Of a stretch of DNA of 64,000 bases, positions 4,732 through 51,204 are shown piece by piece; within the stretch, counting starts at the first letter, position 1, and every line of letters begins with the position of its first letter. This DNA comes from an uncultured Nitrospirota bacterium. Its GTDB lineage: Bacteria; CG2-30-53-67. The notes beneath the pieces are model-generated. The model worked only from the letters and a program-made list of their open reading frames with translations. It was not told the DNA's origin and searched no databases. The position numbers and the translations under genes were made by a program. The DNA is taken from assembly GCA_945786985.1 (NCBI GenBank), contig CALZGC010000160.1, positions 1,031-65,030 of the forward strand, given 5' to 3'.

Positions 4732-4953
4732 CCCGAATATTGCATGAGTCAATCTATTACGAGGCCGGACTTGTCACGGCGTAGCATTCTGCGAAGACGG
4801 ATAGTCTGCCACATGCGGCGTTGCACAAGATTTTCTGACTTCGAAATATTTCATTTCAATATGTCTTCAGCCAGAGAATCTTATGCGCCTTGCCTGTGGC
4901 GCCTCTAGGAGCTGAGGGGCCTCTCATGACGATCACTCATGCAATATCCGGGC
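4732..4953 (+). mobile_element. MITE-like element, copy A (full length, about 222 bp) with about 18-bp terminal inverted repeats CCCGAATATTGCATGAGT ... ACTCATGCAATATCCGGGC
   Basis: TIRs are read directly; the internal module is shared with copies C, F and E2; intergenic between the ChaN gene and the zinc-ribbon ORF. Confidence 0.85.
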
Positions 4954-5040
4954 TTGCCAAAATTCGCGGGAAGGTTCCGGTAACTGCCCTTGTCTCCGGG
5001 CCCCGGTGCTGGCGGGCAGGCCCGCTCCGGACGCACCCGC

Positions 5041-5523
5041 CTATCTTTCCCAATATACCCGCAGGTTCTTCTCCCCATCGCCGTACTGAAAGCGATAGTC
5101 CCCTTTGTACGAACGAGAGAGGGCTTCGCCGATTCTACGGGCAATATGAATTCCCGTGGTGGTCACGAGGGTGTGGTTGTCTTCATCGCTGATCGCCATG
5201 ATCCTCTCCAAAGGGTGGTCGGTCTTTTCCATCTCTTCCACGTTGCGGATCAGGTTTTCAATCTCCTCGCGGTGGGCGCTGAAGAACTCGCCGGCCAGCT
5301 GAATTGTGGCCGCGGGATAGCGGTCGGCCGTGCGGCGGCAGGCCGGGCAGATCGCCTTGTGTGCGTTTTTCTCGGGTGGGTTCCACGACCAACGGCCGTT
5401 CGCAAACACGGCACTGCATTCGGTGCAGCGTGTCGGCTGCGGCGGTTTTTCCCTTTCCCGGTAAGTGTCGTGCCGTCTTTCCAGTATCAGCCTGTCTTTG
5501 CGGCCATGCGTGCTTCTGTCCAT
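5041..5523 (-). CDS. conserved hypothetical zinc-ribbon protein
   Basis: CTEC...CPAC four-cysteine ribbon near the N-terminus; C-terminal YGDGEKNLRVYWER; family not recognised. Confidence 0.45.
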   Translation of the reverse strand: MDRSTHGRKDRLILERRHDTYREREKPPQPTRCTECSAVFANGRWSWNPPEKNAHKAICPACRRTADRYPAATIQLAGEFFSAHREEIENLIRNVEEMEKTDHPLERIMAISDEDNHTLVTTTGIHIARRIGEALSRSYKGDYRFQYGDGEKNLRVYWER

Positions 5524-5808
5524 CTCGCTCCTCCTGAACCCTCTCGCTGCCGCCTCCAGCCTCGCAACGGCTCACAGCATCCGGCTTTCCTGATGACCAA
5601 CAGAGTGCTCGCCGGGAATTGTAGATCCATCCAGTCATAATCATACCCGAGAAATGTCATCTTTGCATCTACCTCGGGAATCGACGAAAGGGCCCGGCCG
5701 CACGGGGGAAGAGCCGCAGCCGGCTTTTCGGTTGCCATGCCCGGACAAATTCGATATGCTCACAAAATTTCTTTTTTGTTTGTGCGAACGAGGTGAAACG
5801 AGGCAGAG

Positions 5809-6912
5809 ATGATTCTGGGGATCGTGGGGCTTCCCAATTGCGGCAAAACAGCGCTATTTAACGCATTGACCGGCGGTAGTGCCGACGTGGCTTCCTATGC
5901 GCAGAGCGGTGCCGAGCCGAATGTGGGGACGGTGAAGGTCCCCGATTTTCGGGTGGACCGCTTGAGCGAAATCTTCAAGCCGAAAAAGACCATTCACGCA
6001 ACCGTGGAGGTCATTGATCTTCCCGGACTTCCCCGGGGCAGTGTTGCCGACGGCGCCCGGGTCACCGATTTTCTGAAGCGGGTCCGGGAGGTGGATGCCC
6101 TGGTCCATGTGGTGCGGGCCTTTACCGACGAGAGCGTTCCCCATCCCTCCGGTTCGGTGGATCCGGTGCGGGATCTTCAGGATCTCGAAACGGAGCTGAT
6201 GCTCAGCGATCTGGGGATTATTGAAAAGCGTCTTGAGCGACTCGACGCGGCGCTCAAAAAAGGGGTGGAGCGTGCCAGGCATGAGGCGGAACAGAAGACG
6301 CTGTTTCGTTTCCGGGAGGCTCTGGAGGATGAGCAGCCGCTCCGTGCGCTGTCCATCTCGGCGGACGAGGAAAAGATGATTCGGGGCTACCGGTTTCTGA
6401 CCCTCCTGCCCGTCATTGTGGTGCTCAATATCCACGAGGGTGCCTTCGGATCTGCAGAGACGGAAGCACTGCTCGGCAAGTTTCGGGAGCTCTGCAGTGT
6501 TGCGACCCGTACCCGTGCCGTCGTGCTCTCGGCCAAGATCGAAATGGAAATGGCCCAACTCCCTCGGGAGGAGGCGAAACTCTTCCTCGAGGATCTCGGG
6601 ATTGGAGTATCGGCCATGGAGCTTCTGGTCCGGACGTGCTATGACCTGCTCGGTTTGATCGCCTTTCTCACCGTGGGGGAGGACGAAGTGCGGGCCTGGA
6701 CCCTCCGCGGCGAAACTCCGGCTCTGCGGGCCGCCGGGGTGATCCACTCCGATATTGAGCGGGGCTTTATCAAGGCCGAGGTCATCGGCTATGATGCTTT
6801 CATCGAGGCCGGTTCCCTTACAGGCGGGCGCGAAAAGGGCACCCTCCGGCTGGAGGGCAAAGAGTACACCGTGGCGGACGGAGACATCATCAACTTCAAG
6901 TTCAACGTCTGA
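5809..6912 (+). CDS. ychF: ribosome-binding ATPase YchF (Obg-like GTPase family)
   Basis: GIVGLPNCGKTALFNALT P-loop; TGS-like C-terminus ...GDIINFKFNV. Confidence 0.95.
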   Translation: MILGIVGLPNCGKTALFNALTGGSADVASYAQSGAEPNVGTVKVPDFRVDRLSEIFKPKKTIHATVEVIDLPGLPRGSVADGARVTDFLKRVREVDALVHVVRAFTDESVPHPSGSVDPVRDLQDLETELMLSDLGIIEKRLERLDAALKKGVERARHEAEQKTLFRFREALEDEQPLRALSISADEEKMIRGYRFLTLLPVIVVLNIHEGAFGSAETEALLGKFRELCSVATRTRAVVLSAKIEMEMAQLPREEAKLFLEDLGIGVSAMELLVRTCYDLLGLIAFLTVGEDEVRAWTLRGETPALRAAGVIHSDIERGFIKAEVIGYDAFIEAGSLTGGREKGTLRLEGKEYTVADGDIINFKFNV

Positions 6913-6952
6913 CCGCCCGGCGGATCGGGCACAACCGAAGAGAGGAGATGGA

Positions 6953-8770
6953 ATGCGTGAAAACCTGGAAACGGTCAACTGGGATTTAAGCCGTCTCTAC
7001 AAGGCGCCGTCGGATCCGGCCATCGACAAGGACCTGCATGACGCCCGGGAGCAGGTTCGCGAATTTCGCGAGCGCTATTACGACAAGCTCATCGCCGAAG
7101 AGCTAACCGCCGCCGAACTGCACCACGCGGTGGCGGCGCTCGAAGACCTCCAGGACAGAGTGCTCAAGACGTACTGGTACGCGCAGCTTCTATTCTCTGC
7201 GGACACCGAGAGGGACGCCCACAAGGCCCTCCTGCAGAGAATCCGGGAGTTCTTCACGGCGCTGCGTCATGAGATTCTCTTTTTTGACCTGGAGGTCATC
7301 GCCATCCCGGATGAACGTTTTGAGAAGCTCCTGGCGGACCCGCTCCTCTCAGGGTATCGGCACTATCTGCAGCATGTGCGGGTGTTCAAACCCCACACCC
7401 TTTCAGAGCAAGAGGAGCAGCTCGTCAATCTCAAGGACCTGACCGGGAAGAACGCGTTCGTCCAACTCTTCGAGGAGCTCACGGCCTCGTTCCGCTACCG
7501 GCTTGATCTGGAAGGTGAGGAACGGGACTACACAGGCGAAGAACTCCTGGCCATGCTGCACCGGCCCGAGGCCGACATCCGGGAGCGGGCCTTTTCGGCC
7601 TTTCTGGAGAGACACGGAGAGCACGCCCTGGTGCTCTCGTCCGTTTTCAACAATATTCTGCTCGACCATGGCGGGGAATGCCGGCTGCGGGGCTATGAGC
7701 AGCCCATTGCCGCCACCCATCTGACCAACGAGCTCACCCATGAGGCCATTGAAGGGATGATGCAGGTCAGCGAGGAGAACTACGGCCTCGCCCAGGAGTA
7801 CTTCCGGCTCAAGGCGCAGCTGCTGGACCTTCCGAAACTCAAGAACTCCGATGTCTACGCGCCGGTGGCCCAGGAGACGCGGGTGGTGCCCTTCCCGGAA
7901 GCCAGGGATCTCGTTTTGCGGGCCTACCGGTCCTTCAGTCCGGTGCTCGGAGAGATGGCGGAGGCCTTTTTTACGGAGTCCCGCATCGATGCCTCGGTGC
8001 GGCCCGGAAAGACGGGCGGAGCCTTCTGTGCGGGACTGACGCCCACTCTGCCACCCTATGTGCTGATGAACTACACAGGGACCCTGCGCGATGTGGCCAC
8101 CCTGGCCCATGAACTGGGCCACGGCATTCATTTTACCCTTTCCGGAAAGCAGCGCCTCGTCAACTATAATGCCGTGCTCCCCATGGCGGAGACGGCCTCC
8201 GTCTTCGGGGAGATGCTGCTCACGACCCAGCTGCTTTCGGAAGAGCAGGATCCCCGGGTACGCATGGCCTTTCTCTGTGCGAAGATCGAGGACGTCATTG
8301 CGACCACCTTCCGCCAGAATGTGCTGACGCGCTTCGAGCTCAAGGCACACGATGCCCGTGGGAAAGCGCTGCTGACGCCCGAAACTTTCTGTGATCTGTG
8401 GTGGGAGGAGAACGCCAGGCTCTATGGCGATGCCGTCACCATGATTCCCCCTTACCGCTGGGGTTGGAGCTATATCAGCCACTTCATCCATTCCCGTTTT
8501 TACTGCTACAGTTATGTTTTCGGGGAGCTGTTGGTCCTGGCCCTCTTTCAGCAATATCGGCAGGATCGGGAGGCCTTTGTGCCGCGCTACCTGGAGCTGC
8601 TCTCCGCGGGGGGGGGCGACAGCCCGCCCAACCTCCTGGCCCGCATGGGGATCGATGTGAACGACCGTGACTTCTGGCAGAAGGGGTACAGTTTTGTGCG
8701 GGACCTCGTGGGCCAGCTGAGCTCTTTGATCACCGAAGTAGACGGAGCAAACCATGGCGGAACTCGATGA
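6953..8770 (+). CDS. pepF: oligoendopeptidase F (M3B family)
   Basis: HELGHGIH zinc motif; M3 architecture; the start is chosen at ATG 6953 behind AGAGGAG (the longer ORF from 6755 overlaps the ychF end). Confidence 0.85.
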   Translation: MRENLETVNWDLSRLYKAPSDPAIDKDLHDAREQVREFRERYYDKLIAEELTAAELHHAVAALEDLQDRVLKTYWYAQLLFSADTERDAHKALLQRIREFFTALRHEILFFDLEVIAIPDERFEKLLADPLLSGYRHYLQHVRVFKPHTLSEQEEQLVNLKDLTGKNAFVQLFEELTASFRYRLDLEGEERDYTGEELLAMLHRPEADIRERAFSAFLERHGEHALVLSSVFNNILLDHGGECRLRGYEQPIAATHLTNELTHEAIEGMMQVSEENYGLAQEYFRLKAQLLDLPKLKNSDVYAPVAQETRVVPFPEARDLVLRAYRSFSPVLGEMAEAFFTESRIDASVRPGKTGGAFCAGLTPTLPPYVLMNYTGTLRDVATLAHELGHGIHFTLSGKQRLVNYNAVLPMAETASVFGEMLLTTQLLSEEQDPRVRMAFLCAKIEDVIATTFRQNVLTRFELKAHDARGKALLTPETFCDLWWEENARLYGDAVTMIPPYRWGWSYISHFIHSRFYCYSYVFGELLVLALFQQYRQDREAFVPRYLELLSAGGGDSPPNLLARMGIDVNDRDFWQKGYSFVRDLVGQLSSLITEVDGANHGGTR

Positions 8771-10130
8771 GAAGCGTCTGAACAGCTATGTACGGCGCGC
8801 GCGCAAACCCTTTGAGACGATGCTACGACGTCTCGTGGAAATCCCATCGGTCAGTGCGGACGCGGCCCACAAGAAGGATGTCGAAGCGGCCGCGATACTG
8901 GCCTCGGGCATGCTGAAGGAGGCGGGCGCGAATGTCAAGCGACTGGAAACACCGGGACACCCGCTGGTGATCGGACGCCTCGGCGAGGACCCCGCCCATC
9001 CCACCGTTCTGCTTTACAACCACCTCGATGTGCAGCCCGCGGAGAAGGAGGGCTGGGAGTCGGACCCCTTTGAGCTGGCCGTCAAGAAGGGACGGTATAT
9101 GGGGAGGGGGACCACCGACGATAAGGGGCCCGCGCTCACCGCGTTCCTCGCTGCACAGCATGCCCGGGCGGTCGGTATTCCGTTGAATTTCTGTTTTGTC
9201 TGGGAATTTGAAGAAGAGATGGGCAGCCCCCACTTCGACAAGGCCCTCCGCGCTGAAAAGGAGTTTCTGCAAACCGATTCGATCCTGGTTTCTGACACGG
9301 TCTGGATCTCCCGGAGCAAACCGGCCATCCCCTTCGGGATCCGGGGACTTCTGACGGCCACCCTCTCTATCGAAACGGGATCGCGCGACGCCCACTCGGG
9401 ACTCGTCGGCGGCGCCGCACGCAATCCGCTGGGGGAACTCTGCAGACTGATCTCCCAGTGTTACGATGCCGCCACGGGAGAGGTGAAGATCCCCGGATTC
9501 TATGACGGCATCCTGATCCCCGGTCAGGAAGAGATCGACGGGTTTCTGGAGTCGGGTTTCACCATTACGGGATTCAAGAAAGCCCACGGGTTGAAGCGGC
9601 TGCGCTTTTCAGAAACGGACGCCGTTCTAAAGGCCATCTGGTCCCGACCGACCTTTGAGGTCCATGGATTGAGCGGGGGCTACACCGGTGAGGGGGTGAA
9701 AACCATCGTGCCGCCGCAGGCGGAGGCCAAAGTCAGTATGCGGCTCGTGCCGCGCCAGGAGCCCAAGCAAATCTTTGCCCGGCTCCGGGATTTTTGCAAA
9801 GCACAAAACGGGGATGTCAAGGTGACACTGGAGGCAATGCTAGACCCGTACCTGGCGTCTGCCAAGGGGGAGCATATGGAGGCGGCCGTGGAGGCGATGG
9901 TCTTCGGGTTCCAGACGAAGCCGGCCCTCGTTCGGGAGGGCGGGTCCATCGGGGCGGTGGTCAGCCTGAACCGTTTGCTCAATGCCCCTGTGGTTTTCCT
10001 GGGGCTCTCGCTTCCTGAACACGGATACCATGCGCCCAATGAATATTTTGAGTGGCGGCAGGTTCAGGGCGGTATCCGAACATTCGTGTTCTACTTCGAT
10101 CGCATCAGCCGAATCCGTCCCCTCGGATGA
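8754..10130 (+). CDS. M20 family metallopeptidase (ArgE/DapE/CPG2-like dipeptidase)
   Basis: M20 catalytic and dimerisation domain motifs (HLDVQP, GRGTTDDKGP, EEEMGS). Confidence 0.8.
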   Translation: MAELDEKRLNSYVRRARKPFETMLRRLVEIPSVSADAAHKKDVEAAAILASGMLKEAGANVKRLETPGHPLVIGRLGEDPAHPTVLLYNHLDVQPAEKEGWESDPFELAVKKGRYMGRGTTDDKGPALTAFLAAQHARAVGIPLNFCFVWEFEEEMGSPHFDKALRAEKEFLQTDSILVSDTVWISRSKPAIPFGIRGLLTATLSIETGSRDAHSGLVGGAARNPLGELCRLISQCYDAATGEVKIPGFYDGILIPGQEEIDGFLESGFTITGFKKAHGLKRLRFSETDAVLKAIWSRPTFEVHGLSGGYTGEGVKTIVPPQAEAKVSMRLVPRQEPKQIFARLRDFCKAQNGDVKVTLEAMLDPYLASAKGEHMEAAVEAMVFGFQTKPALVREGGSIGAVVSLNRLLNAPVVFLGLSLPEHGYHAPNEYFEWRQVQGGIRTFVFYFDRISRIRPLG

Positions 10131-10145
10131 GGTGTCTGGCCCGGG

Positions 10146-10283
10146 CTAGCGCTGGACGATGAGAGGAGCTTGATCCGCATCCCTGCGCCGGGAGGCGAGG
10201 GTGACCACGTCGGACTTCTTGCCCTGAAGTTTTTTCCGTTTGCGTTCCCGACGGGCCTTGCGTTTTTTCGTATTCGATGCCAT
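10146..10283 (-). CDS. small highly basic protein (45 aa, MASNTKKRKARRERKRKKLQGKKSDVVTLASRRRDADQAPLIVQR)
   Basis: strong RBS GAAGGAG 7 nt upstream of the ATG; sits 45 nt downstream of acyP in the same orientation; below the 60-aa cutoff of the ORF track. Confidence 0.4.
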   Translation of the reverse strand: MASNTKKRKARRERKRKKLQGKKSDVVTLASRRRDADQAPLIVQR

Positions 10284-10328
10284 GATGGACTCCTTCTTCA
10301 TTTTCTCTCTGTTGGTGGGCCGAAGAAT

Positions 10329-10622
10329 TCAGTAGCGCACGTCGAAGGTGCGAAACTCTGCTGCGTGGGGCTCCTCCGTGACTTTCACCTGCGTCACGCG
10401 CGCGCCCGCCGGTCCCTGATGACACCAGGCAATCAGCTCCTGAACGGATCGCCGGTCCCCTTCAGCCACGATCTCCACTCCCCCGTCGACAAGGTTTCGG
10501 ATCCAGCCGCAGACCTGATAACGACGGGCCTGCTCGCAGGTGCTGGCCCTGAAAAAGACTCCCTGCACTCTACCGCGAACGATCAGCCGGACGCGCGTAT
10601 TGTCTTTGGCTGCCGTTGCCAT
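10329..10622 (-). CDS. acyP: acylphosphatase
   Basis: VRGRVQGVFFR and GWIRN/GGVEIVAEG acylphosphatase signatures, 97 aa. Confidence 0.9.
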   Translation of the reverse strand: MATAAKDNTRVRLIVRGRVQGVFFRASTCEQARRYQVCGWIRNLVDGGVEIVAEGDRRSVQELIAWCHQGPAGARVTQVKVTEEPHAAEFRTFDVRY

Positions 10623-10625
10623 GGC

Positions 10626-10823
10626 CTAATCCTCTTGGCTTTCATCGATCTTCTTGTCGTTTTCGGGGGTGACATCGATCTCATCGTCGCCCTTGGTTGC
10701 CCGCTTGAAATTGCGGATCCCCTTTCCGACACCCGATCCGATCTCGGGAAGTTTCCCGGCGCCGAAGATGACCAGGACGATGACCAGGATAATGACGAGC
10801 TCCAGCCATCCTAAACCAAACAT
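10626..10823 (-). CDS. tatA: twin-arginine translocase subunit TatA/E
   Basis: [29 protein letters not shown]... single TM plus amphipathic helix. Confidence 0.9.
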
Positions 10824-10867
10824 CCCATGCTCCTTTCAAAGACGAGAGACGGTCTGCCTCTGTACCA

Positions 10868-11467
10868 TCAGGCCGTGCTCTTGTGAAGGGCCCTGAAGTC
10901 CCGGGGCGTATTGATATTGTACAACGACGTCATTCCCCCATCGAATCCTGACAACTCCCGTTCCGGTATGTACCGGACGTTGAGGGAGCGGATAATCTGC
11001 TGCAGACTTCGGCCTCCCCCCAGGAGGTATCGCTTCAGGGCGGGCAGCGATCTTCTGTCGTAGACGGCATGCAGCGGCTCCAGCATCGGACCGCCTGGAC
11101 GAGAGCGCCTCTGAAGCACCGGAACGGCGCCCTCCCAGCCTTGGGCAGCCTGCATCATGTGCTGCACCAGGCCCGTGCGGACGAAAGGCATGTCACAGGC
11201 TACGCAGAAATTGTAGCGGTCGCCTGAGGCGCAAAGTCCGCTGATGATGCCGGTGAGCGGACCTCGAATCGAGTAGAGGTCTCGAACCGGACGGACCGGA
11301 AATCCCGCATACCGCTGCGGTTCCCGGGTCACGACGATCATGTCAGGAAAAACCGGGTTGAGCGCTGCAATGAGGGACCAGAGGAACAGCCGCCCCCGGT
11401 GTTCCAGGAAGGCTTTGTTTGTACCCATGCGGCGGTTTTCACCGCCGGCAAGGATAATTGCTGCCAT
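10868..11467 (-). CDS. mobA: molybdenum cofactor guanylyltransferase
   Basis: ILAGGENRRMGTNKA nucleotidyltransferase motif, 199 aa. Confidence 0.85.
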   Translation of the reverse strand: MAAIILAGGENRRMGTNKAFLEHRGRLFLWSLIAALNPVFPDMIVVTREPQRYAGFPVRPVRDLYSIRGPLTGIISGLCASGDRYNFCVACDMPFVRTGLVQHMMQAAQGWEGAVPVLQRRSRPGGPMLEPLHAVYDRRSLPALKRYLLGGGRSLQQIIRSLNVRYIPERELSGFDGGMTSLYNINTPRDFRALHKSTA

Positions 11468-11499
11468 GATGGCCCGCCTCCCCGTTTCCCCTTGGCCAG

Positions 11500-11596
11500 C
11501 CCGAATATTGCACGAGTCAATCTATTACGAGGCCGCATGGGGCGCCTCTCGGGCTTCCGGGGCCTCTCATGACGACCACGCGTGCAATATGCGGGC
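11500..11596 (+). mobile_element. MITE-like element, copy B (short, about 97 bp; two termini only)
   Basis: CCCGAATATTGCACGAGTCAATCTATTACGAGGCC ... GGCCTCTCATGACGACCACGCGTGCAATATGCGGGC; fills the spacer between the BON-domain gene and mobA. Confidence 0.8.
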
Positions 11597-11952
11597 TAGT
11601 CGACGCGTACTTTCAGAAAGGGAGTTACCCGTCGCACGCCCTGCACGCCTTTGGCGATGATAACGGCCCTGTCGATTTCGGCCTGACTGCGGACATAGCC
11701 GCTCAGGGTCACCTCGCCAAGATTCGTGTCCACGTCGATGTTCAGTGCGCGCACCTGAGCGTCTTGAATCAGGCGGGTCTTCACGGAAGCTGTGATCGCC
11801 GAATCATCGACGACTTCCGAGACGCTCTTCTCGTCGGTACCCATTTTGTAGCCCGTGACGGCAGCTCCACCGAGGAGCAGCACTTCGCAACCCGAGGCCA
11901 TTAGAAGTGCAGCCAGGAGGGAAGCGACGAGCACACCGTTGGATAAGCGCAT
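11596..11952 (-). CDS. BON-domain (OsmY-like) lipoprotein
   Basis: lipobox-like LLMASGC; BON-type core; the start is taken at MRLSNG with RBS AGGAGA. Confidence 0.6.
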   Translation of the reverse strand: MRLSNGVLVASLLAALLMASGCEVLLLGGAAVTGYKMGTDEKSVSEVVDDSAITASVKTRLIQDAQVRALNIDVDTNLGEVTLSGYVRSQAEIDRAVIIAKGVQGVRRVTPFLKVRVD

Positions 11953-12129
11953 TGTCCCGTCTCCTTTCTCCAAAATCCACGCCAGTCCTGCCATCCTTTC
12001 GCTGAACATACATATCAATTCCGCCCTTTATTGTCAATGGGATATTCGCCGTTTCCTTGACACCCGTGGACCGCTCTGCTATTCTGTGCTGGCTTCATGC
12101 TGTCACCTTATGTCCCGGAGTTCACCTCA

Positions 12130-12597
12130 ATGAGCCGCATCACAGCTGTTCTGTTCTTCACCGCCGCTTTGCTTGCAGCGCTGCCCGCCGGACTGGCTGC
12201 GGAGTGGGGGCCCTGGTCTGTGAGTCCCGGCGCGCCCGGCGGGGAGTCGCAGCGGCCGCCTGACGAGGAGGCCTCCCGCGCCGGTCCGGCAGGCCGCCTG
12301 TTGACGGGCGCCGTCCGATTCTTCCAGAAATACATCTCCCCCGTCGACGGGGAGCGGTGCACCATGGTCCCGACCTGCTCCCACTACGGGTTGCAGGCTA
12401 TCCGAAAGCACGGTGCGCTGCTCGGCTTCATCATGACGGCGGACCGGATCGTCCACGAATACGAGGAGCAGCGCTTTGTTCCCTCCGTGTGGGATGGAAG
12501 AACCCACCGGTTTCTCGATCCCGTGGAGAACAACGACTTCTGGTTTTCCCCGGCCGCCCTGTCCGGCACTCCGGTGCAGCCACAGGCAAAGGAATAG
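12130..12597 (+). CDS. yidD: membrane protein insertion efficiency factor YidD-like with an extended N-terminus
   Basis: FFQKYISPVDGERCTMVPTCSHYGLQAI haemolytic-domain signature; signal peptide plus a low-complexity N-terminal extension. Confidence 0.75.
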   Translation: MSRITAVLFFTAALLAALPAGLAAEWGPWSVSPGAPGGESQRPPDEEASRAGPAGRLLTGAVRFFQKYISPVDGERCTMVPTCSHYGLQAIRKHGALLGFIMTADRIVHEYEEQRFVPSVWDGRTHRFLDPVENNDFWFSPAALSGTPVQPQAKE

Positions 12598-12603
12598 CTG
12601 CCC

Positions 12604-13497: not shown

Positions 13498-13524
13498 TCG
13501 CGCTCCGACCGGGCGAAAATGGGT

Positions 13525-13559: not shown

Positions 13560-13584
13560 GTTGCGGAACATTTTTTTCGCCGGG

Positions 13585-22646: not shown

Positions 22647-22823
22647 CCCGGATATTTTGCATGCGTGATCGTCATGAGAGGGCCCAGCGGTAATGGAGGC
22701 TTCAGAGGGAAGGCGCAGAAGATTTGCTGGCTGAAGACATATTGAAATGTTTCAAAGTCAGCAAATCTTCTGTAACGCCGCATGTGGCAGACTATCCGGC
22801 CTCGTAATAGATAATATCCGGGT
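22647..22823 (-). mobile_element. MITE-like element, copy C (about 177 bp, inverted relative to copy A)
   Basis: reverse complement of the copy A termini and internal module; contains the 14-bp inverted repeat CAGAAGATTTGCTG...CAGCAAATCTTCTG. Confidence 0.85.
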
Positions 22824-24214: not shown

Positions 24215-24975
24215 ACGCTCACATAGGTCGCCGCCAAGGTAACCAGGCCCACCTGTTCTGCCCCTGCCTGTTTCAGGACGCGGGCGCACTCGTTCGCCGT
24301 GGCGCCCGTGGTGAGCACATCGTCTACCAGCAGCACCCGCGAAGAGACAAGCCGCACGTCACCGCGCACCGCGAAACAACCGCGCACGTTCCGATGCCGC
24401 GCCGCCCCCTTCAAACCGACCTGGGGTTGCGCTGCGCGGGTCCGCATCAGCCTATCCAACACCAGGGGGAGACCGAGGAGCGACGCTACTTCCCGACCGA
24501 TGACAGCGGATTGATTAAAGCCGCGCATCCGAAGCCGCCGAGGGTCCAGCGGTACGGGGACGACCAGATCGTACGTTCCCTGCAGGGAGGCGAGACGGGG
24601 TCGGCACCACTGGACGAACGCACGGCCCAGTTGCCAGTAACCCTGGTATTTGAATAGATGGATCGCTTCCCGCGCAGCGCCCTGGAAGTAGAAGAGTCCG
24701 AGGGCGTGATCCAAGTCGGGGGGCGTTAGCCGACACGGGCCACAGCGAAAGCCGGGCACCATCTCGTCAAGGTCCGGGGCGGCCAGGGGTCGTCCACAGG
24801 TGGGACAGCGGGGCGCTGCAATCGGGTGAATGCCCTGCCGGCAGGTCTTGCAGAGCGAAAGAGACCGAGCAGGTCCCAGTAGTTCTGCGCAAAGCGCACA
24901 TCGGCTGGGGAGCAGGACCTCCAGGATTATCCCGGATATTGCATGCGTAAATCTATTACGAGTCATGACGATCAC
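24211..24975 (-). CDS. comF: ComF family protein (phosphoribosyltransferase with an N-terminal double zinc ribbon); 5' end lies inside a MITE
   Basis: CALC...CKTC...CPTCG...CGPC ribbons; C-terminal PRTase motif VLLVDDVLTTGAT; no canonical start exists downstream of the MITE boundary. Confidence 0.75.
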   Translation of the reverse strand: MIVMTRNRFTHAISGIILEVLLPSRCALCAELLGPARSLSLCKTCRQGIHPIAAPRCPTCGRPLAAPDLDEMVPGFRCGPCRLTPPDLDHALGLFYFQGAAREAIHLFKYQGYWQLGRAFVQWCRPRLASLQGTYDLVVPVPLDPRRLRMRGFNQSAVIGREVASLLGLPLVLDRLMRTRAAQPQVGLKGAARHRNVRGCFAVRGDVRLVSSRVLLVDDVLTTGATANECARVLKQAGAEQVGLVTLAATYVSV

Positions 24976-24993
24976 TCATGCAATATCCGGGCT
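24930..24993 (+). mobile_element. MITE-like element, copy D (minimal about 64 bp, termini only)
   Basis: CCCGGATATTGCATGCGTAAATCTATTACGAG + TCATGACGATCACTCATGCAATATCCGGGC; overlaps the first about 15 codons of the comF ORF. Confidence 0.8.
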
Positions 24994-32102: not shown

Positions 32103-33499
<1,397 letters not shown>

Positions 33500-33626
33500 T
33501 TTACTCCAGCAATATCTGGCTAGAAAAAAAAAGGGGATCCGGCGATCCCTCACCTGGGACACCCTATCCCCTTACTTCCGACTCACAGCGTGTACAAACG
33601 CGCCTAGAACAGAGAGAACCGCCTCG

Positions 33627-43205: not shown

Positions 43206-43522
43206 CCGAATTTGTCACGATTCTGGTGACGGCCGCGTCCGAGGCCGAAGCAGAAGTCATTGCCGATCAGTTGCTCTCTGCGAAACTGATCGCCTGTGCC
43301 AACATCGTCGGTGGAGTCCGATCCGTTTTTTCCTGGGCAGGGGCTGTTCAGAGGGAATCGGAAGTATTGATCATCATGAAGAGTCGCCAGGCCCTATTCC
43401 AGGAGATCGAACAAAAAGTGCGGCAACTTCACAGCTACGACGTTCCAGAAATCCTTGCCATCCCCATCCTGACCGGGTCCGAGCCCTATCTGCAGTGGCT
43501 CGGGGACGAAACAGCCCGCTGA
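43202..43522 (+). CDS. cutA: divalent-cation tolerance protein CutA
   Basis: 106 aa CutA1 signature; 4-nt overlap with larC. Confidence 0.8.
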   Translation: MTEFVTILVTAASEAEAEVIADQLLSAKLIACANIVGGVRSVFSWAGAVQRESEVLIIMKSRQALFQEIEQKVRQLHSYDVPEILAIPILTGSEPYLQWLGDETAR

Positions 43523-43734
43523 GCCCGGATGTTTTATCAGTGTTGTCTCCGGAGCTTCCTGAAGGCAAAAAACCGCTTCCAGAGCATCCTGAGTAGTATC
43601 CCGGAGCAAATCAAATTTTCCGTTGCTGAAATGGAACAGATCGTACTAAAATAGACGAAACAGGCATCCAAGCTATTATCCTGAAACGCCAACCCCGTGC
43701 ACCTCGCAAGAGCTCCGGATGAGGAGTTGCTGTC

Positions 43735-44844
43735 ATGAATGAACTTGAACAGCTTAAGAAAATCGTGCGGGACCAGACCCGGATGATCATTGAAAAGAAC
43801 CGCATGCTGGCTGAGATGGAGTACCGGCTGAAGAACTCCGTCATTACGGGAAGCCGCAGGGAGCAGCTCTCGCAAATGGAGTCCCGCTACGACAAAGACC
43901 TCATCGAGGAACAGGCGAGCATGCTGAAGAGCATCCTTGGATCGGTTCCCTGCGGTCTATTGCTGGTTAACGGACAGCGCAAGATCATATTGCATAACGA
44001 CGAGGCGCTTGAAATCATGGGACTCTCGGGCCAGGACGTACTCGGCAGGAGTTGTGAAGCCGTGATGGGAGAGACCTGCCGGGAGAGCTGTCTGCTGGAA
44101 AGTGCTGTGGAACTGGGCGAGGAGTTGTGCTGCCGTAAGATGGCCGCCCGTACCCGGGACGGCCGCGAATTGTCGCTTTCGCTGAAGGTGACGCCCATTC
44201 GCAACAGCCAAGGGCGCATCGTTGGCGGCGTTGAGGTCTTCTCCCGACGCACGGACTCGGTAGATCAGACGCAGGCCCTCCGGGAGCAGCAAGACGGAAT
44301 TTTTCGGGTCTTTTCACGTCTCATGGGGCAGAAGGACGGCTACCTGGTGGCCCACTCGCACCGGGTGAATGACATTGCCCTCCAGTTGGCGGACGCCCTG
44401 GGCATGGGGCACTCCAACGGTGAAAAAGACCTATCCCTGGCCTGCCTCGTTCACGATGTAGGTCTTCTGACGGTTCCCGGGGAGATTCTGAGTGCCAAGA
44501 GAACACGTCCGGCCCAAGAGCATGAAGCTATCCGATCTCACCCGGCCTCAGGGGAATGGATCCTTGACTCGCTCGAGGGGTTCGACCACATCAAGAAGAT
44601 CGTTCGTTCTCACCATGAGAGATTTGATGGTGGCGGCTATCCTGACGGACTCGTTGGAGAGGAGATCCCCAAGGAGTCCCGTATTCTCGCTCTGGCGGAG
44701 GCTTACGACGCTATGTGCCATGATGCCGCCGCCCCGAAGCGCTCCCCAGAGGAGATCATCCGGGAAATTCAGGAAAACAGCGGTACTCAGTTCGATCCTG
44801 AGATGGTAAGTGTTTTTCTGAAACAGGTGGTTTCGAAGCGATGA
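43735..44844 (+). CDS. PAS-sensor HD-GYP phosphodiesterase
   Basis: PAS-like region (LLLVNGQRKIILHNDEALEIMG), HD motif plus HHERFDGGGYP. Confidence 0.75.
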   Translation: MNELEQLKKIVRDQTRMIIEKNRMLAEMEYRLKNSVITGSRREQLSQMESRYDKDLIEEQASMLKSILGSVPCGLLLVNGQRKIILHNDEALEIMGLSGQDVLGRSCEAVMGETCRESCLLESAVELGEELCCRKMAARTRDGRELSLSLKVTPIRNSQGRIVGGVEVFSRRTDSVDQTQALREQQDGIFRVFSRLMGQKDGYLVAHSHRVNDIALQLADALGMGHSNGEKDLSLACLVHDVGLLTVPGEILSAKRTRPAQEHEAIRSHPASGEWILDSLEGFDHIKKIVRSHHERFDGGGYPDGLVGEEIPKESRILALAEAYDAMCHDAAAPKRSPEEIIREIQENSGTQFDPEMVSVFLKQVVSKR

Positions 44845-44932
44845 ATCTCAGCGAACGTATCGCCTTTGAGCTTCATCTAACGCTTGGGCGCGGGAGAGCA
44901 TCGGGCGCAATTTTAGTGAGAGATTTTGTCTA

Positions 44933-44962
44933 TTGACAGATATTTTTTTGGCTTGTTATACT
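44933..44962 (+). promoter_or_regulatory. sigma-70 promoter P1 (TTGACA-18-TATACT) upstream of the M23-secA operon
   Basis: sequence match. Confidence 0.45.
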
Positions 44963-45030
44963 AATAGCAATGTATGGCGAAGGCCGAACCGGGCAAGCTG
45001 GTAAGAAAATATCAGGGGCCCAGAAAAGAA

Positions 45031-45060
45031 TTGACAAATAGGGGTTTCATGTGTTATAAA
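45031..45060 (+). promoter_or_regulatory. sigma-70 promoter P2 (TTGACA-18-TATAAA)
   Basis: sequence match, 45 nt before the M23 gene start. Confidence 0.45.
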
Positions 45061-45104
45061 AAGCATTTACAATCCTCGACATACTACATTCCAGAGGAAC
45101 GCCC

Positions 45105-46004
45105 ATGAAAAAATATACGGTCATGATCATGTCCGATCCGACTGCAAAGGTTCGGAAGATCAAAGTCCCGGCTCTTGCACCCGTACAGCTCATCAGCGCC
45201 GCGATCGCCGTCGTCCTGATCACTGCCTGTCTGCTGGTGTATTTCGGCTCCGACTACATCGAGATGAAAGAGAATCTCAAAGAGCTTAATGCTCTCCGGC
45301 AAGAGAACACGGCACAGCGTTTCCAACTGCAGAGTTTTACCAGAAATCTCGACCAGATTCGGACTGCTCTGGACACCCTCAAGAATTTTGACCACAAGCT
45401 TCGCGTCATGGCCGACCTCAATGACACCTCTGAAAACAATTTTCTGCTCGGCATCGGCGGCCCCTCTGAGGTGGAACTGCCGGCGGAGTACAAGACGGAC
45501 CTATCGGAGAAAATTACCAGCGACCTCAATGACCTGAGTCTTCATTCCGCACGGCAGGAGATCAGCTTCCAGGAGTTGATCGACTTCTTTTCGGAGCAGA
45601 AACTGGTTCTCAACTCTACGCCTTCCATTTGGCCTGTTCGGGGATGGATCACCTCCGGATTCGGTGTGCGCAGAGATCCCTTCACCGGCTACAAGAAGAT
45701 GCATGACGGGCTGGATGTTGCAACACGAGCGGGAACACCGATCATTGCTCCGTGCGATGGCATTGTGACGCGCGTTACGACTGATTACGGATACGGCAAG
45801 ATGCTCGAAATCAACAACGGGCACGGCATCGTGACGCGCTTTGGACACAACTCCAAGAACATGGTGCAGGTGGGTGATCGGGTGAAGCGGGGAGACCTCA
45901 TTGCCTACGTCGGCAACACCGGTCGAAGCACAGGGCCTCATCTGCACTATGAGATTATCGTAAACGGAACCCATGTGAATCCCATGAAATATATCCTCAA
46001 TTAG
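45105..46004 (+). CDS. M23 family metallopeptidase (EnvC/NlpD-like murein hydrolase activator)
   Basis: coiled-coil N-terminus; HDGLD...GHNS...HLHYE LytM motifs. Confidence 0.85.
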   Translation: MKKYTVMIMSDPTAKVRKIKVPALAPVQLISAAIAVVLITACLLVYFGSDYIEMKENLKELNALRQENTAQRFQLQSFTRNLDQIRTALDTLKNFDHKLRVMADLNDTSENNFLLGIGGPSEVELPAEYKTDLSEKITSDLNDLSLHSARQEISFQELIDFFSEQKLVLNSTPSIWPVRGWITSGFGVRRDPFTGYKKMHDGLDVATRAGTPIIAPCDGIVTRVTTDYGYGKMLEINNGHGIVTRFGHNSKNMVQVGDRVKRGDLIAYVGNTGRSTGPHLHYEIIVNGTHVNPMKYILN

Positions 46005-46146
46005 GTGGGTAAGGGATAGCGCCGTGAGCCGAGTTTTTGATTGAAAAAGCTGATTATCTAAGATAACATGCCCCCGAGGGTTGGAATACTCGGGGGTTTT
46101 TCTTTGGCTTGAATTCAACCCCTCCCCTTTCGGAGATGTTGCCACC

Positions 46147-48774
46147 ATGTTTGCTTACGTCATGCAGAAGATATTCGGCACCCACAACGAACGGGAGCTG
46201 AAAAAAATCCACCCTCTGGTCGAGCGGATCAACGGGCTCGAATCTGAGATCCAACCCCTCACGGACGCCGAGCTGGCCGGTAAAACTGTGGAGTTCCGGG
46301 AGCGTCTGCAGCAGGGGGAGACCCTGGACGATTTGCTCTACGAGGCCTTTGCCGTCGTCCGGGAGGCCTCGGTGCGCGCCGTGGGGATGCGCCATTTTGA
46401 TACGCAGCTCATCGGTGGGATTGTTCTCCATCGCGGCAGGATCGCCGAGATGAAGACTGGTGAAGGCAAGACACTGGTCGCCACGCTGCCCGTTTACCTC
46501 AACGCGCTGCAGGGCCGAGGAGTGCATGTCATCACCGTCAATGACTATCTGGCAAGGCGAGACAGCCAGTGGATGGGCAAGATCTACCGCTTCCTTGGGA
46601 TGAGTGTGGGATGCATTGTGCACGGGCTTTCCGATGAGGAGCGCAAGGCCGCGTACGGGGCCGACATCACCTATGGCACCAACAATGAGTTCGGCTTCGA
46701 TTATCTGAGAGACAACATGAAGTTCCGTCTCGAAGATTACGCCCAACGTGATTTTCACTATGCCATCGTGGACGAAGTCGACAGTATTCTTATCGATGAG
46801 GCCCGGACGCCGCTGATTATCTCGGGCCCCACCGAAGACTCGACGGACAAGTACTACCGCATCAACAAGATCATTCCCAAGCTGAAACAGGACGTCCACT
46901 ATAGCCTCGACGAGAAATCGAATACCGCTGCGTTGACGGAAGAAGGCAACGAGCAGGTCGAAAAGGACCTGAACGTCGCCAACCTCTACGATCCTTCCAA
47001 CATCGAACTGGTCCATCATGTGAATCAGGCCCTCAAGGCCCACACCCTGTTCAAACGGGACATCGACTACGTTGTGAAAGACAACGAGGTCCTCATCGTC
47101 GATGAGTTTACGGGGCGCCTCATGCCCGGCCGCCGTTACAGTGACGGGTTGCACCAGGCCCTGGAGGCCAAGGAGGGGGTCAAGATCGAAAAGGAAAACC
47201 AGACCCTCGCAACCGTCACTTTTCAGAACTACTTCCGCATGTACGAAAAGCTCGCCGGCATGACCGGGACCGCGGACACGGAGGCCGCAGAGTTCTCGAA
47301 AATTTACAGTCTGGAAGTCAACGTCATCCCCACCAACCGACCGATGATCCGCGACGACGCCTCGGATGTCATCTACAAGACTGAAAAAGAGAAGTTCAAG
47401 GCCATCGTGGAGGAGATCGAAGCCTGTCATCAGCGGGGGCAGCCCGTTCTGGTCGGCACCATCTCCATTGAAAACTCGGAGAAGATCTCGGCCCGTCTAA
47501 AAAAAAGAGCCATTCCCCACCACGTGTTGAACGCTAAGCATCACGAGCGGGAGGCCGAGATCGTTTCGCAGGCGGGCCGGTTCGGCGCGCTGACCATTGC
47601 CACCAACATGGCGGGCCGGGGCACGGACATCGTGCTCGGAGGCAACCCGGAGTTTCTCGCGCAGGCGAAGGCGCAGGAGGGGAGTGAAAAATACGAATCC
47701 CTCATCGAGCATTTTACCCAGCAGTGTGCCGAGGAGCGCGAGCGGGTGCTCGAACAGGGGGGACTCCACATCCTGGGCACGGAACGTCATGAAAGCCGGC
47801 GCATCGACAACCAGCTGCGTGGCCGCTGCGGGCGGCAGGGCGATCCAGGAAGTTCACGCTTTTATCTCTGCCTGGAAGACGACCTGCTCAGGATCTTCGG
47901 CTCGGACAGGATCTCCAACATCATGAACCGATTGGGCATCGAAGAAGATGTTCCCATCGAGAACCGGATGGTCAGCCGGGCCATCGAGAACGCTCAGAAG
48001 AAGGTCGAGGCCCAGAATTTCAATATCCGGAAACAGCTCCTCGAGTACGACAATGTCATGAACCAGCAGCGGGAAGCCATCTACGGGCTTCGGCGGGAGA
48101 TCCTCGGGGGCGAGGATATCAAGGCGATGGTTCTGGAAATCAGCCACGACCTTCTGGAGCGTTACCTCAGCATCTACCGTGAAGAGGAGAAGGCGCAGGA
48201 GAAATGGGACGCCGACGGGCTGAAGGACTTCTACTATCGGGTGTTCAACCAGGAGCTCCCCTTTGAGCGCGGTGAGATCCAGGCCATGGAATTCACTCAA
48301 CTCCAGGAGAAGCTTCAGGCCCACATAGAGAACACCTATTACCATCGGGAAGTGGAGTTGAGTGAGCCCTTCCTGCGTCACATTGAACAGATGATTCTGC
48401 TGCAAAGTCTCGACGTGCAGTGGAAGGACCACCTTCTCGGCATGGACCACCTCAAGGAGGGGATCGGTCTTCGGGGTTACGGGCAGAAGGATCCGCTGCT
48501 CGAATACAAGCGGGAAGGGCTCGAGATGTTTCAGGAGTCCATGGAACGCATTGACGAGAAGGCCGTCACCACTCTCTTTCATCTGCAGATAGAGAAACCG
48601 GAAGAGGCGGTGATGGAGCGCTCCCAACGCCCACAGGAAGTCAACTACAGCCACGGCAGCGGCGGTCAAGGGGCCACCCGGGTCAAGACCGTCGTCAAGG
48701 GACAGAAGATCGGGAGAAACGAACCCTGCCCCTGCGGCAGTGGGAAGAAATACAAGAAGTGCTGCGGCCGGTAG
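46147..48774 (+). CDS. secA: preprotein translocase ATPase SecA
   Basis: [11 protein letters not shown]..., Walker motifs, C-terminal zinc finger [14 protein letters not shown]. Confidence 0.95.
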
Positions 48775-48786
48775 CCAGCCATCCCC

Positions 48787-49650
48787 ATGGCAGCCGAGGC
48801 GTCAGCAGGGAGAGGCCCCATCAAAGTCGCCGGTATCCAGATTTCGCCTTCCGAAAGCATCGAGCAGAATCTCGACAAAGCCACTCGCTTCATTGAGCAT
48901 GCCGTCACCAGCGGCGCCGGCATTGTCTGTTTTCCCCAGCTCTTCTTTCTGCCCTGGTTCCTGGGAGAGGAAACTTCTGAGGCCCGGGCCCATGCCATTG
49001 CCGCAGACCATGAAATCATGCGGCGCTTTTCGGAAGCGGCCCGCAAGTACGAAGCCGTGCTGGTCTGTCCCTTCTACGAAGAGAGTGACGGGAAAGCGTA
49101 CAGCGCTGCAGCTGTCTACGATGCCGACGGCTCCCTGGCGGGCCTCTATCGCAAGGTCCACATTCCGGACATTCCCGGCTGGCGGGAGAAGCACTACTTC
49201 GCTCCGGGAGATCGCGGGCTGCCGGTTTTTGACACCGCCCGGGGACGGCTTGGTGTGCAGCTCTGCTGGGATAATTTCTTTCCGGAGGGCTCCCGGTCCC
49301 TCGCCCTGGCCGGCGCCGAGATCATTCTGGCACCGACGGCGGCCGCCTATGCTTCCCAGGAGCGCTGGTTTCACGTCATTTCTGCCAACGCCTTCGTGAA
49401 CAATGTCTTCGTTTTTCGCGTCAATCGCGTCGGACACGATCACGGACTTGACTTCTACGGGCACAGCTTCTGTGTCGATCCTTACGGCGAGCTGATTGCC
49501 GAGCCCGTCGGCCTGCAAGAGAGTATCCTCATGGCCGAGGTGGACCTTGCCTGTGTCGCCGAAGCCCGGGAGCAGAGCGGCTTCTTCCGGGACCGTCGCG
49601 AACATCTCTACCATGAACCCCTGCCGACCCGGGGTGAGGATGCTTCATGA
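48787..49650 (+). CDS. carbon-nitrogen hydrolase (nitrilase superfamily) family protein
   Basis: E-K-C triad context (VQLCWDNFFPE), 287 aa. Confidence 0.75.
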   Translation: MAAEASAGRGPIKVAGIQISPSESIEQNLDKATRFIEHAVTSGAGIVCFPQLFFLPWFLGEETSEARAHAIAADHEIMRRFSEAARKYEAVLVCPFYEESDGKAYSAAAVYDADGSLAGLYRKVHIPDIPGWREKHYFAPGDRGLPVFDTARGRLGVQLCWDNFFPEGSRSLALAGAEIILAPTAAAYASQERWFHVISANAFVNNVFVFRVNRVGHDHGLDFYGHSFCVDPYGELIAEPVGLQESILMAEVDLACVAEAREQSGFFRDRREHLYHEPLPTRGEDAS

Positions 49651-50762
49651 TCATCGGCATCCCTCGGGAGATCAAAGACCATGAGTATCGAGTCTCCTCG
49701 ACGCCCGCCTGTGTGGAGCAACTCACCGAAGGGGGCCACGCCGTCCTGATCCAGGAGGGGGCCGGGGTGGGCACCGGTATTTCCGACCATGAATTCGAAG
49801 AGGCCGGGGCCACGATTGTGCGGGACGCCAAGTCCGTCTTCGACCGGGCCGAGCTGATCGTCAAAGTCAAGGAGCCTCTTCCGGCCGAGTATGGGCTGTT
49901 TCGCGAGGGACAGGCCCTCTTCACTTTTCTGCACCTCGCGGCCGATCGCGCTCTGACGGAATTCCTTCTGAAGAAAAAGATCTGGGCCATCGGCTATGAG
50001 ACCCTTGAGGCCGACGACGGCAGCCTCCCCATTTTGGTTCCCATGAGCGAAATCGCCGGGCGCATGGCTGTTCAGATCGGGGCCTATTACCTGGAAAGCC
50101 AAAATGCCGGCAAGGGAATCCTCCTGTCGGGCGTGCCAGGAGTGCGTCATGGGGAGGTGGTGATCATCGGTGGCGGCATCGTGGGGGCGAACGCGGCGCG
50201 CATCGCCCGGGCCATGGGTGCGCGGGTCACCCTGATCGACAAGAACGCGAATCGGCTCAAGGAACTGGACGATCGTTTCGGCGGAGACGTGACCACGCTG
50301 ACGCCCCTCAAAAAGAATATTGCTACTTCCGTTGCCAAAGCAGATCTGCTGATCGGAGCCGTCCTCGTCGCCGGCGGCCGCGCGCCCAAGGTCGTGAGCG
50401 GCGAGATGATCCGATCCATGGAAGGCGGCTCGGTGGTGGTGGATGTGGCCGTCGACCAGGGGGGATGTTTTGAAACGACGCGGCCCACCACCCATTCGGA
50501 GCCGGTCTACGAAGTGGATGAAGTGATTCATTATGCCGTCACCAACATCCCCGGCGCCGTGGCCCGCACATCGACCTTCGCCCTCACCAACGCAACGCTG
50601 CCCTACCTCTCGGAGATTGCCGACAGCGGCTTTGGCCCAGCCGTTCTGCAATCGGAAGCCCTGCAAAAAGGGGTCAACACGCTCAAGGGGCACCTGACCC
50701 ATCCGCTCGTGGCCGAAGCCTTCGGCTTGAACCATCGCGCCGTAAAAACACTTCTTGCCTGA
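49647..50762 (+). CDS. ald: alanine dehydrogenase
   Basis: MIIGIPREIKDHEYRV..., NAD motif IIGGGIVG. Confidence 0.9.
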   Translation: MIIGIPREIKDHEYRVSSTPACVEQLTEGGHAVLIQEGAGVGTGISDHEFEEAGATIVRDAKSVFDRAELIVKVKEPLPAEYGLFREGQALFTFLHLAADRALTEFLLKKKIWAIGYETLEADDGSLPILVPMSEIAGRMAVQIGAYYLESQNAGKGILLSGVPGVRHGEVVIIGGGIVGANAARIARAMGARVTLIDKNANRLKELDDRFGGDVTTLTPLKKNIATSVAKADLLIGAVLVAGGRAPKVVSGEMIRSMEGGSVVVDVAVDQGGCFETTRPTTHSEPVYEVDEVIHYAVTNIPGAVARTSTFALTNATLPYLSEIADSGFGPAVLQSEALQKGVNTLKGHLTHPLVAEAFGLNHRAVKTLLA

Positions 50763-50861
50763 AATTAAGATCCGAACTGTTTCTCAACGGCATGGCTGTG
50801 AGATGGCCGGCGGGTCATGCGGGAGGGCACAGCTTCTGTGAAGTTGGGCTGCACAAAAAAA

Positions 50862-50936
50862 TGGTGGGCGATGCCAGATTCGAACTGGCGACTTCCACCG
50901 TGTGAGGATGGCACTCTCCCGCTGAGTTAATCGCCC
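50862..50936 (-). tRNA. tRNA-Val (anticodon CAC)
   Basis: GGGCGAT acceptor stem pairs with ATCGCCC; D, anticodon (loop CTCACAC) and T (GTTCGAATC) arms folded by hand; CCA is encoded. Confidence 0.8.
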
Positions 50937-50949
50937 ACTGCATTTTCGA

Positions 50950-50978
50950 ATATTACCAGAGACCGGTCAAATGTCAAC
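50950..50978 (-). promoter_or_regulatory. sigma-70 promoter for tRNA-Val (TTGACA-17-TAATAT)
   Basis: minus-strand -35 at 50973-50978 and -10 at 50950-50955, about 12 nt before the tRNA 5' end. Confidence 0.55.
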
Positions 50979-51044
50979 GTCTATTCAGCGCAGGATCCGT
51001 GCGCTCACTGCATGACGATTCCCCCAAGGTAATGCGCTTTAGCT

Positions 51045-51204
51045 CGGACATTGCATAAGTGTTCGTCGTGAGAGGCCCCCAGAGGTCCCAGAGATCCTGG
51101 AAGCGTCACAGGCAAGGCGCAGAAGATTTTCTGGCTGAAGACATATTGCAATATTTCGAAGTCAGAAAATTTTCTGTAACGCCAAATGTGGCAGGCTATA
51201 CGGC
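51045..51204 (-). mobile_element. MITE-like element, copy F (inverted; degenerate or truncated termini)
   Basis: internal module GCGCAGAAGATTTTCTGGCTGAAGACATATTG...GTGGCAGGCTATACGGCC shared with copies A and C; abuts the fmdB stop codon. Confidence 0.7.

Follow-up and report, generated by a model that had tools for sequence, protein, structure and literature searches.

A family of miniature inverted-repeat elements in an uncultured Nitrospirota bacterium that has its terminus in common with IS1380-family insertion sequences

Correia/NEMIS elements of Neisseria and RUP elements of Streptococcus pneumoniae are repeats of 100-200 bp with inverted ends and a hairpin fold, which lie in intergenic DNA near gene ends, occur in short forms as well, and use a transposase acting in trans. 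They are linked to transposases other than the one considered below, duplicate TA, and are each confined to one genus. Insertion sequences of the IS1380 family have ends that begin with CC and a short direct repeat of 4-5 bp. For IS1247, a 5-bp repeat is listed (PMC3281130), and IS1380 transposases have served as prokaryotic outgroup to piggyBac, an element that has CCC ends and duplicates TTAA (PMC10813416). Here we describe a family of MITEs (miniature inverted-repeat transposable elements) with seven loci in a stretch of 64,000 nt from an uncultured Nitrospirota bacterium (assembly GCA_945786985.1, contig CALZGC010000160.1, positions 1,031-65,030), which we call the window. Judged from general knowledge, the family resembles Correia/NEMIS and RUP in the traits given above; unlike these genus-confined elements, its terminus recurs in several phyla. 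The CCC...GGG ends fit those of the IS1380 family, and a 4-bp repeat is the simplest fit for the flanks. The MITE closely resembles piggyBac and its miniatures in combining CCC...GGG ends with a TA-centered, palindromic tetranucleotide target that is apparently duplicated. It differs from piggyBac in having bacterial hosts and a looser target, YTAR, in which CTAG and TTAA are equally frequent.

We consider it probable (about 0.8) that these repeats are non-autonomous transposons moved by a DDE transposase that belongs to one large clade of the IS1380 family, and we infer that this movement takes place in trans. The family is small and non-coding, has inverted termini and target-site duplications, is present as dispersed, polymorphic copies, and shares its terminus with an autonomous element. 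It is a new, unnamed family of an ordinary kind of element, the bacterial MITE. In the literature searched, which was limited in extent, we found neither a repeat family named from this lineage nor a description of an IS1380-derived MITE, and no earlier name for the present family.

All seven loci are united in one repeat family by an unbiased repeat search (direct and inverted repeat families D1, D2, D4, D5, and I1-I13). The 18-nt end CCCGRATATTGCATGAGT, with the 18-mer CCCGAATATTGCATGAGT, has nine matches in the window at three mismatches or fewer, against a mean of 0.05 and a maximum of 1 in dinucleotide-preserving shuffles. Reading and aligning the copies revealed a conserved left end (L-end), CCCGRATATTGCATGAGT-AAATCTATTACGAGGCC, and a conserved right end (R-end), GGCCTCTCATGACGATC-ACTCATGCAATATCCGGG; the subterminal sequences of the MITE are AAATCTATTACGAGGCC and GATCGTCATGAGAGGCC. 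The long copies have an internal module of about 105 nt between these two ends. The master form is an imperfect palindrome of 175 bp, from which copies A, C, and G are derived (Table 1). The initial annotation thus recognized a true MITE family, consisting of small, non-coding repeats with terminal inverted repeats, and placed its copies in intergenic DNA, as we also find. It went too far in ascribing termini of about 18 bp to every copy: both 18-nt termini are present on A, B, D, and E and, in damaged form, on C, but F and G have one end each. Similarly, the internal module attributed to the full copies is indeed common to A, C, and G but not to E, whose interior has no match elsewhere in the window or in any retrieved locus. 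Element E is a second element type that has only the terminal repeats in common with the family. Copies B and D are minimal versions in which the two ends are joined, as had been proposed.

The window copies measure 61-221 bp, compared with 36-359 bp elsewhere. Open reading frames (ORFs) beginning inside copies derive from the repeat itself, and those translating to 'MTITHAISG', which had already been called artefacts, are read out of the R-end (ATGACGATCACTCATGCAATATCCGGGC). The 32-nt extra insert of copy A, GGACTTGTCACGGCGTAGCATTCTGCGAAGA (window positions 4767-4798), is also present in a copy of another metagenome-assembled genome (MAG; CAYUBU01, locus L033). Since both copies have it, this sub-variant has therefore either spread as such or been passed between lineages.

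Table 1. Elements of the MITE family and related pieces in the window. Flanks are given left/right; identities refer to the 175-bp master consensus; the last column gives the predicted folding energy in kcal/mol with its z-score.
Element	Position	Length	Strand	Flanks	Structure	Neighborhood	Fold
A	4732-4952	221 bp	+	CTAG (4728-4731) / CTTG	Full length: L-end, 32-nt extra insert, internal module, R-end; 83% identity	CTAG contains the TAG stop of ORF 3754-4731	-88.1 (z = -5.8)
B	11500-11595	96 bp	+	CCAG / CTAG	Short form: L-end, R-end, small GC-rich center	CTAG contains the stop codon of a minus-strand BON-domain gene	-43.1 (z = -3.9)
C	22647-22822	176 bp	-	TTAA / TCAA (+ strand)	Inverted; 10-nt deletion in the L-end repeat, 2-nt insertion in the R-end repeat	Between divergent GAF/HD-GYP and LysM genes	
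D	24931-24991	61 bp	+	TTAT / CTAG	Minimal: L-end (32 nt) and R-end (29 nt)	Between iPGM stop and comF-like start	-26.3 (z = -6.4)
Terminal fragment	33164-33170	7 nt		TTAG before it (33160-33170 together)		Directly left of E	
E	33171-33346	176 bp	+	TTGA / CTAA	18-nt terminal repeats of the family; unrelated, strongly palindromic 140-nt interior		-88.4 (z = -7.6)
F	33395-33499	105 bp	+	TTTA	5'-truncated: internal module and R-end remain, no L-end; 84% identity to positions 80-175		No significant fold of its own (z = -0.3)
Solo terminal repeat (eighth piece)	33503-33519		-	Followed by CTAG (33520-33523)	Degenerate: CCAGATATTGCTGGAGT		
G	51043 to about 51215		-	TTAG at R-end (+ strand)	Inverted; R-end and internal module kept, first ~27 nt of L-end deleted; 91% identity to positions 33-137	Stop codon of ORF 51205-51756 (minus) inside the remnant	

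The copies are not confined to the window, a restriction that the initial annotation had named as a possibility. Species-representative genomes were scanned with the 17-nt pattern CCGRATATTGCAYGMGT, which gave 104 listed matches, a lower bound of which about half are chance matches. Among the matches listed, family copies occupy at least 10 loci of two other Nitrospirota MAGs, and homology extends past the terminus only in these two. In 49 of the 104, CTAG, TTAG, TTAA, or CTAA plus C directly precedes the match, compared with a chance expectation of about 0.4; these matches carry the labels Nitrospinota, Arenicellales, Pseudomonadales, Azotimanducaceae, Verrucomicrobiota, Planctomycetota, Desulfoluna, Lentisphaerota, and others. 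The matches of the scan include local MITEs of 200-450 bp whose interiors are unrelated, as well as elements of 1.58-1.63 kb. When metagenomes were scanned with a 24-nt pattern from the R-end, 92 MITE-bearing stretches were obtained (533 kb in total, mean G+C 51%), about half of which are contigs of the ENA assembly CAJICE01 and the remainder from Joint Genome Institute (JGI) metagenomes. If the metagenome stretches are combined with the Nitrospirota loci and the window, the number of unique complete sites is 97. Their length classes are 175 bp (40 copies with a median identity of 94% to the consensus), 194-196, 207, 217, 87-88, 64, 39, and 36 bp, and the 87-88 bp class, to which copy B belongs, is found at eight independent sites elsewhere, some with CTAG/CTAG flanks. 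A megablast search with 20 kb of the window against plasmids gave nothing useful.

The larger elements identify the transposase. Every transposase-bearing element seen with this terminus encodes an IS1380-family transposase of 437-461 aa, which argues against the IS630/Tc1 or ISL3-like parent suggested by the initial annotation. In locus L055 (loci retrieved by the scans are numbered with L), positions 3709-5094 encode a protein of 461 aa that matches PF13701 (3e-167) and scores 417.8 bits against NF033539, the NCBIfam equivalog 'IS1380 family transposase' with a cut-off of 180. A tblastn search of the loci of the genome scan found an IS1380-family transposase in 18 of those listed. Elements of 1.58-1.63 kb are bounded by the 18-nt terminus after CTAG, TTAG, or CTAA in L055, L029, L031, L066, L095, L024, and L067; L205 is likewise bounded at both ends, and L203 and L204 have the terminus at the one end found. 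The flanks of complete elements are CTAG/CTAG in L055 and four Arenicellales copies, TTAG/CTAA in L024, and CTAA/CTAA in L067 if a shift of one base is allowed at the left end. Further copies with the terminus are present in records labeled Tectomicrobia, Paracoccaceae, and Nitrosomonas. The clade is very large, with more than 8000 proteins at E ≤ 1e-50 in a profile search with four of the transposases, the majority of them on contigs of 1.6-2 kb, and the terminus is nearly invariant while the clade proteins are 55-70% identical. For the 437-aa transposase, most of the 120 best homologues (P0158-P0277) are encoded on contigs of only 1.5-2.5 kb, as is usual when an element present in many copies breaks metagenome assemblies.

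In annotated plasmids, ISPosp7, ISPa33, and ISMaq4 are the closest elements that bear a name (IS1380 family; names as assigned by the Prokaryotic Genome Annotation Pipeline, PGAP), with transposases 49-56% identical to the terminus-bounded ones. ISPa33 and ISMaq4 have ends that read CTAG|CCCGGATTTCTCATGAG, and ISPosp7 has CTAG|CCTGAATATT and CTAG|CCCGCATATT. Their termini resemble those of the MITE, beginning with CCCGGAT or CCTGAAT directly after CTAG on both sides, and ISPa33 and ISMaq4 also carry ...CATGAG further in. Unlike the MITE, all three are autonomous, measure about 1.55-1.6 kb, and carry a transposase gene, and their termini differ from that of the MITE at 4-6 of 18 positions. A closer match is found in the IS1380 elements with a 437-aa transposase from Arenicellales, Nitrosomonas, Tectomicrobia, and Paracoccaceae, in which the terminus CCCGGATATTGCATGAGT is identical or nearly so and the YTAR flank is likewise present. 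These are the likeliest kind of trans-acting partner, although they have no sequence in common with the MITE beyond the terminus and none was found in the Nitrospirota records searched. The interior of the MITE (CTTCGAAATATTTCA) bears some resemblance, by eye only, to the left end of some full-length copies (CTTCGATATAATTCA), which is probably a coincidence.

The 97 complete sites are independent insertions, since the sequences surrounding them are unrelated, and their flanks inform on the target. Read from L-end to R-end, the flank pairs are TTAA/TTAA at 18 sites, CTAG/CTAG at 17, CTAA/CTAA at 9, TTAG/CTAG at 7, CTAG/CTAA at 5, and rarer pairs at the remaining 41. The same tetranucleotide stands on both sides at 44 of the 97. 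The frequency of mismatched flanks, 50%, is near the value of about 39% predicted from 6% divergence over eight positions, and central and outer positions contribute about equally to the mismatches. In the window, the flanks are also tetranucleotides around a central TA (CTAG, TTAA, CTAA, TTAG), with paired flanks agreeing at just two to three of four positions. A 4-bp YTAR direct repeat with decay is the simplest fit and the most likely form of the duplication. It is favored over a TA duplication because the non-palindromic pair CTAA/CTAA occurs at nine sites and TTAG/CTAA at none of the 97. The TA or TAG flanks reported by the initial annotation are thus correct as to the central TA, but they are part of YTAR tetranucleotides, for which a 4-bp repeat is likelier than a 2-bp TA duplication. 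We also considered 2-bp, 3-bp, and piggyBac-type donor-flap models, among which the data make no clean distinction.

Comparison with relatives indicates that the family has moved. The closest relative that was found via the phosphoglycerate mutase gene beside copy D is contig 19 of CAMYMF01, a related Nitrospirota MAG (locus L103), which shows synteny to the window between 14.7 and 37 kb, with 80-84% identity at the nucleotide level. The copy D site is empty in this contig and in two more MAG contigs (L104 and L106), with 4 nt at the place where the window has 4 + 61 + 4; the net insertion is 65 nt (61 + 4), and the iPGM-comF gap in the relative is 28 nt. The E/F cluster (33.16-33.52 kb) is wholly absent from L103, and insertion polymorphism with respect to a related genome is thus present at two places. 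Copy C is found at the orthologous place with the identical ...CCGGG|TTAA junction, in a version whose L-end is gone and whose identity to the window copy is only about 70%. Judging from this common place and junction, the insertion of copy C is ancient. With the D and E/F sites empty and C common to both, the family is therefore mobile and old, having inserted before and after the split of the two lineages. A second pair of filled and empty sites, 94% identical, is formed by L145:608-782 and L118:1221-1380.

The window copies themselves are best read as fossils, because they are 83-91% identical to the master, have imperfect flanks (no perfect pair), include three truncated or damaged copies, and have no transposase nearby. 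By the same reasoning, they are probably immobile now.

In the mechanism that we propose, the transposase would recognize the 18-nt terminal inverted repeat 5'-CCCGGATATTGCATGAGT, and the element would be inserted at a TA-centered tetranucleotide (CTAG, TTAA, or CTAA, i.e., YTAR) that would be duplicated in the process. About 30 nt per end would be enough for movement, given that ends-only forms of 61-64 bp and 87-88 bp occupy independent sites with their own duplications. Variants would arise from the 175-bp master via internal deletion and the gain of small palindromic inserts. The target words, with TAG or TAA on both strands, are rare inside the genes of a genome with 60% G+C, which would explain why copies are located at stop codons or shortly after them. 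At A and B, the stop codon of the neighboring gene coincides or overlaps with the flanking CTAG, and at G it lies within the remnant.

Several observations weigh against mobilization by an IS1380-type enzyme or against the 4-bp repeat. No IS1380-type transposase was detected in the 64-kb window (tblastn, E ≤ 1e-3), as the initial annotation had also noted for a cognate transposase, nor in ten 8-kb loci of the two related Nitrospirota MAGs, nor in the 533 kb of MITE-rich metagenome loci, CAJICE01 contigs included. Of the more than 8000 homologues, the best 120 include no protein labeled Nitrospirota. The MITE has no sequence in common with any full-length element seen beyond the 18-nt terminus, and therefore does not derive from a known copy by simple deletion. 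Regarding the 4-bp repeat, TTAG...CTAA flanks are found on the full-length element of L024, the MITE of L082, and window element E, and the filled site of L145 reads ATAG-MITE-CTAG where the empty allele of L118 has a single ATAG. There is also an orientation bias (L-end to R-end), with nine CTAA/CTAA pairs versus no TTAG/TTAG pair among the 97 sites, such that insertion seems biased in its orientation relative to the asymmetric target.

The TTAG...CTAA flanks and the ATAG/CTAG pair are better explained by a 2-bp TA duplication, or by a hybrid flank, than by a clean 4-bp repeat. They would be expected if the copies were MITEs of the IS630/Tc1-mariner type with G...C termini, which duplicate TA and are mobilized by a transposase of the IS630 family encoded elsewhere in the genome. 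At 68 of the 97 sites both flanks retain the central TA, and CTAG, which IS630 itself targets, is the commonest flank. We nevertheless regard this origin as very unlikely, since all full-length elements with the terminus encode an IS1380-family protein (PF13701/NF033539) and since CTAA/CTAA is a direct repeat at nine independent sites where TTAG/CTAA has none. A TA duplication would moreover predict that inner and outer bases vary independently, whereas TTAA and CTAG dominate as whole words. Palindromes of the REP/BIME/REPIN type are units of about 20-40 nt that are associated with RAYT (IS200/IS605-like tyrosine transposases) and show no target duplication. A spread by RAYT, or maintenance by the host as structural repeats, would agree with copies that are intergenic, strongly hairpin-forming, and mosaic, with clustered and solo termini. 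It is at odds with the discrete ends, the flanking tetranucleotide repeats, the clean empty sites in the relative, and a terminus identical to that of DDE insertion sequences, and a length of 61-221 bp (master 175 bp) with 18-nt inverted ends is MITE-like rather than REP-like; of the explanations considered, we give this one the least credence.

An explanation that is compatible with mobilization by IS1380-family transposases is that the elements, MITEs in origin, have been co-opted, with the hairpin at gene ends under selection as a transcript-stabilizing or attenuating structure or as a small RNA. Complete copies are predicted to form one long hairpin each, and these folds are very stable (Table 1). 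Copy C has been kept at one place in two lineages that differ by about 16-20% in nucleotides, and D stands within what is a gap of 28 nt in the relative. On the other hand, Rfam covariance models at the gathering score found no match in the window except one tRNA, and neither a promoter-like nor a terminator-like site was predicted around D. Copy C is decaying, being only ~70% identical between the lineages and devoid of its L-end in L103, and F, G, and C are all truncated or damaged. Co-option is therefore an improbable addition, though less so than the IS630-type origin. The only tRNA gene matched is located at 50865-50936 on the minus strand, about 100 bp from copy G. On the minus strand, positions 33524-33560 hold a hairpin followed by nine T's (GGGGATCGCCGGATCCCC-T9), with the MITE cluster on one side and, on the other, the upstream neighbor of obg (rpmA, encoding L27, in the syntenic relative). 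This structure, which is also conserved in L103, looks like the terminator of that neighbor.

Returning to IS1380-family mobilization, a wider reading that joins these observations can be put forward only tentatively. The window family may be a local branch of a very widespread system, of which the literature searched gave us no description: an IS1380 clade in which the 18-nt end and the YTAR target have stayed nearly unchanged across at least eight phylum-level labels while the proteins drifted to 55-70% identity, and on whose end each lineage has built its own unrelated MITEs. The chemistry could possibly resemble that of piggyBac, in that the stagger would be 4 nt, excision would be seamless, and the 4-nt donor flank would be carried over. 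Such a carry-over would explain hybrid flanks that have the target word on one side and canonical CTAG or TTAA on the other; the hybrid flank of L145, with CTAG as its canonical side, may reflect this or may be due to decay. If this reading is true, any incoming copy of the IS1380 clade could wake resident MITEs in an unrelated host.

Some smaller forms and pieces were observed as well. A GC-rich, near-perfect palindrome of about 26-30 nt (GGTGCCAGGCAGGCCTGCCTGGCACC) is present once or twice inside otherwise normal MITEs (L114, L127, L116, and L120, which are variants of 194-217 bp, and L033:3595-3640), and looks like a second, still smaller insert that generates the longer length classes. Elements of 36 bp (L002:1844-1879) and 39 bp (L199:536-574) are hardly longer than two terminal repeats back to back and lie between perfect flanks, CTAG/CTAG and TTAA/TTAA, respectively. 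Solo or tandem termini adjoin complete copies at L091:5330-5400, which reads CTAG-CCCGAATATTGCATGAGTAAGTCTA-CTAG-CCCGAAT..., and at window positions 33160-33170 and 33503-33519, which suggests that insertions were nested, or events aborted, at the ends of elements already in place. In L053, two termini with 2.7 kb between them were considered as a composite element, which we rejected; they are solo ends of separate elements.

For genome annotation, the family accounts for spurious ORFs, for altered gene ends (three copies supply or overlap a stop codon), and for extra hairpins in operon spacers, as between iPGM and comF. It links MITEs to the IS1380 family, a link that we did not find described in the literature searched, and its 18-nt terminus recurs together with a TTAA/CTAG-type target in Nitrospirota, Nitrospinota, Gammaproteobacteria, Verrucomicrobiota, Planctomycetota, and other records. 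The basic picture is unchanged, as these repeats are selfish DNA of an ordinary class. A bacterial substrate of 61-175 bp whose end and target are defined would be convenient for asking whether target choice and seamless excision in the style of piggyBac predate eukaryotes.

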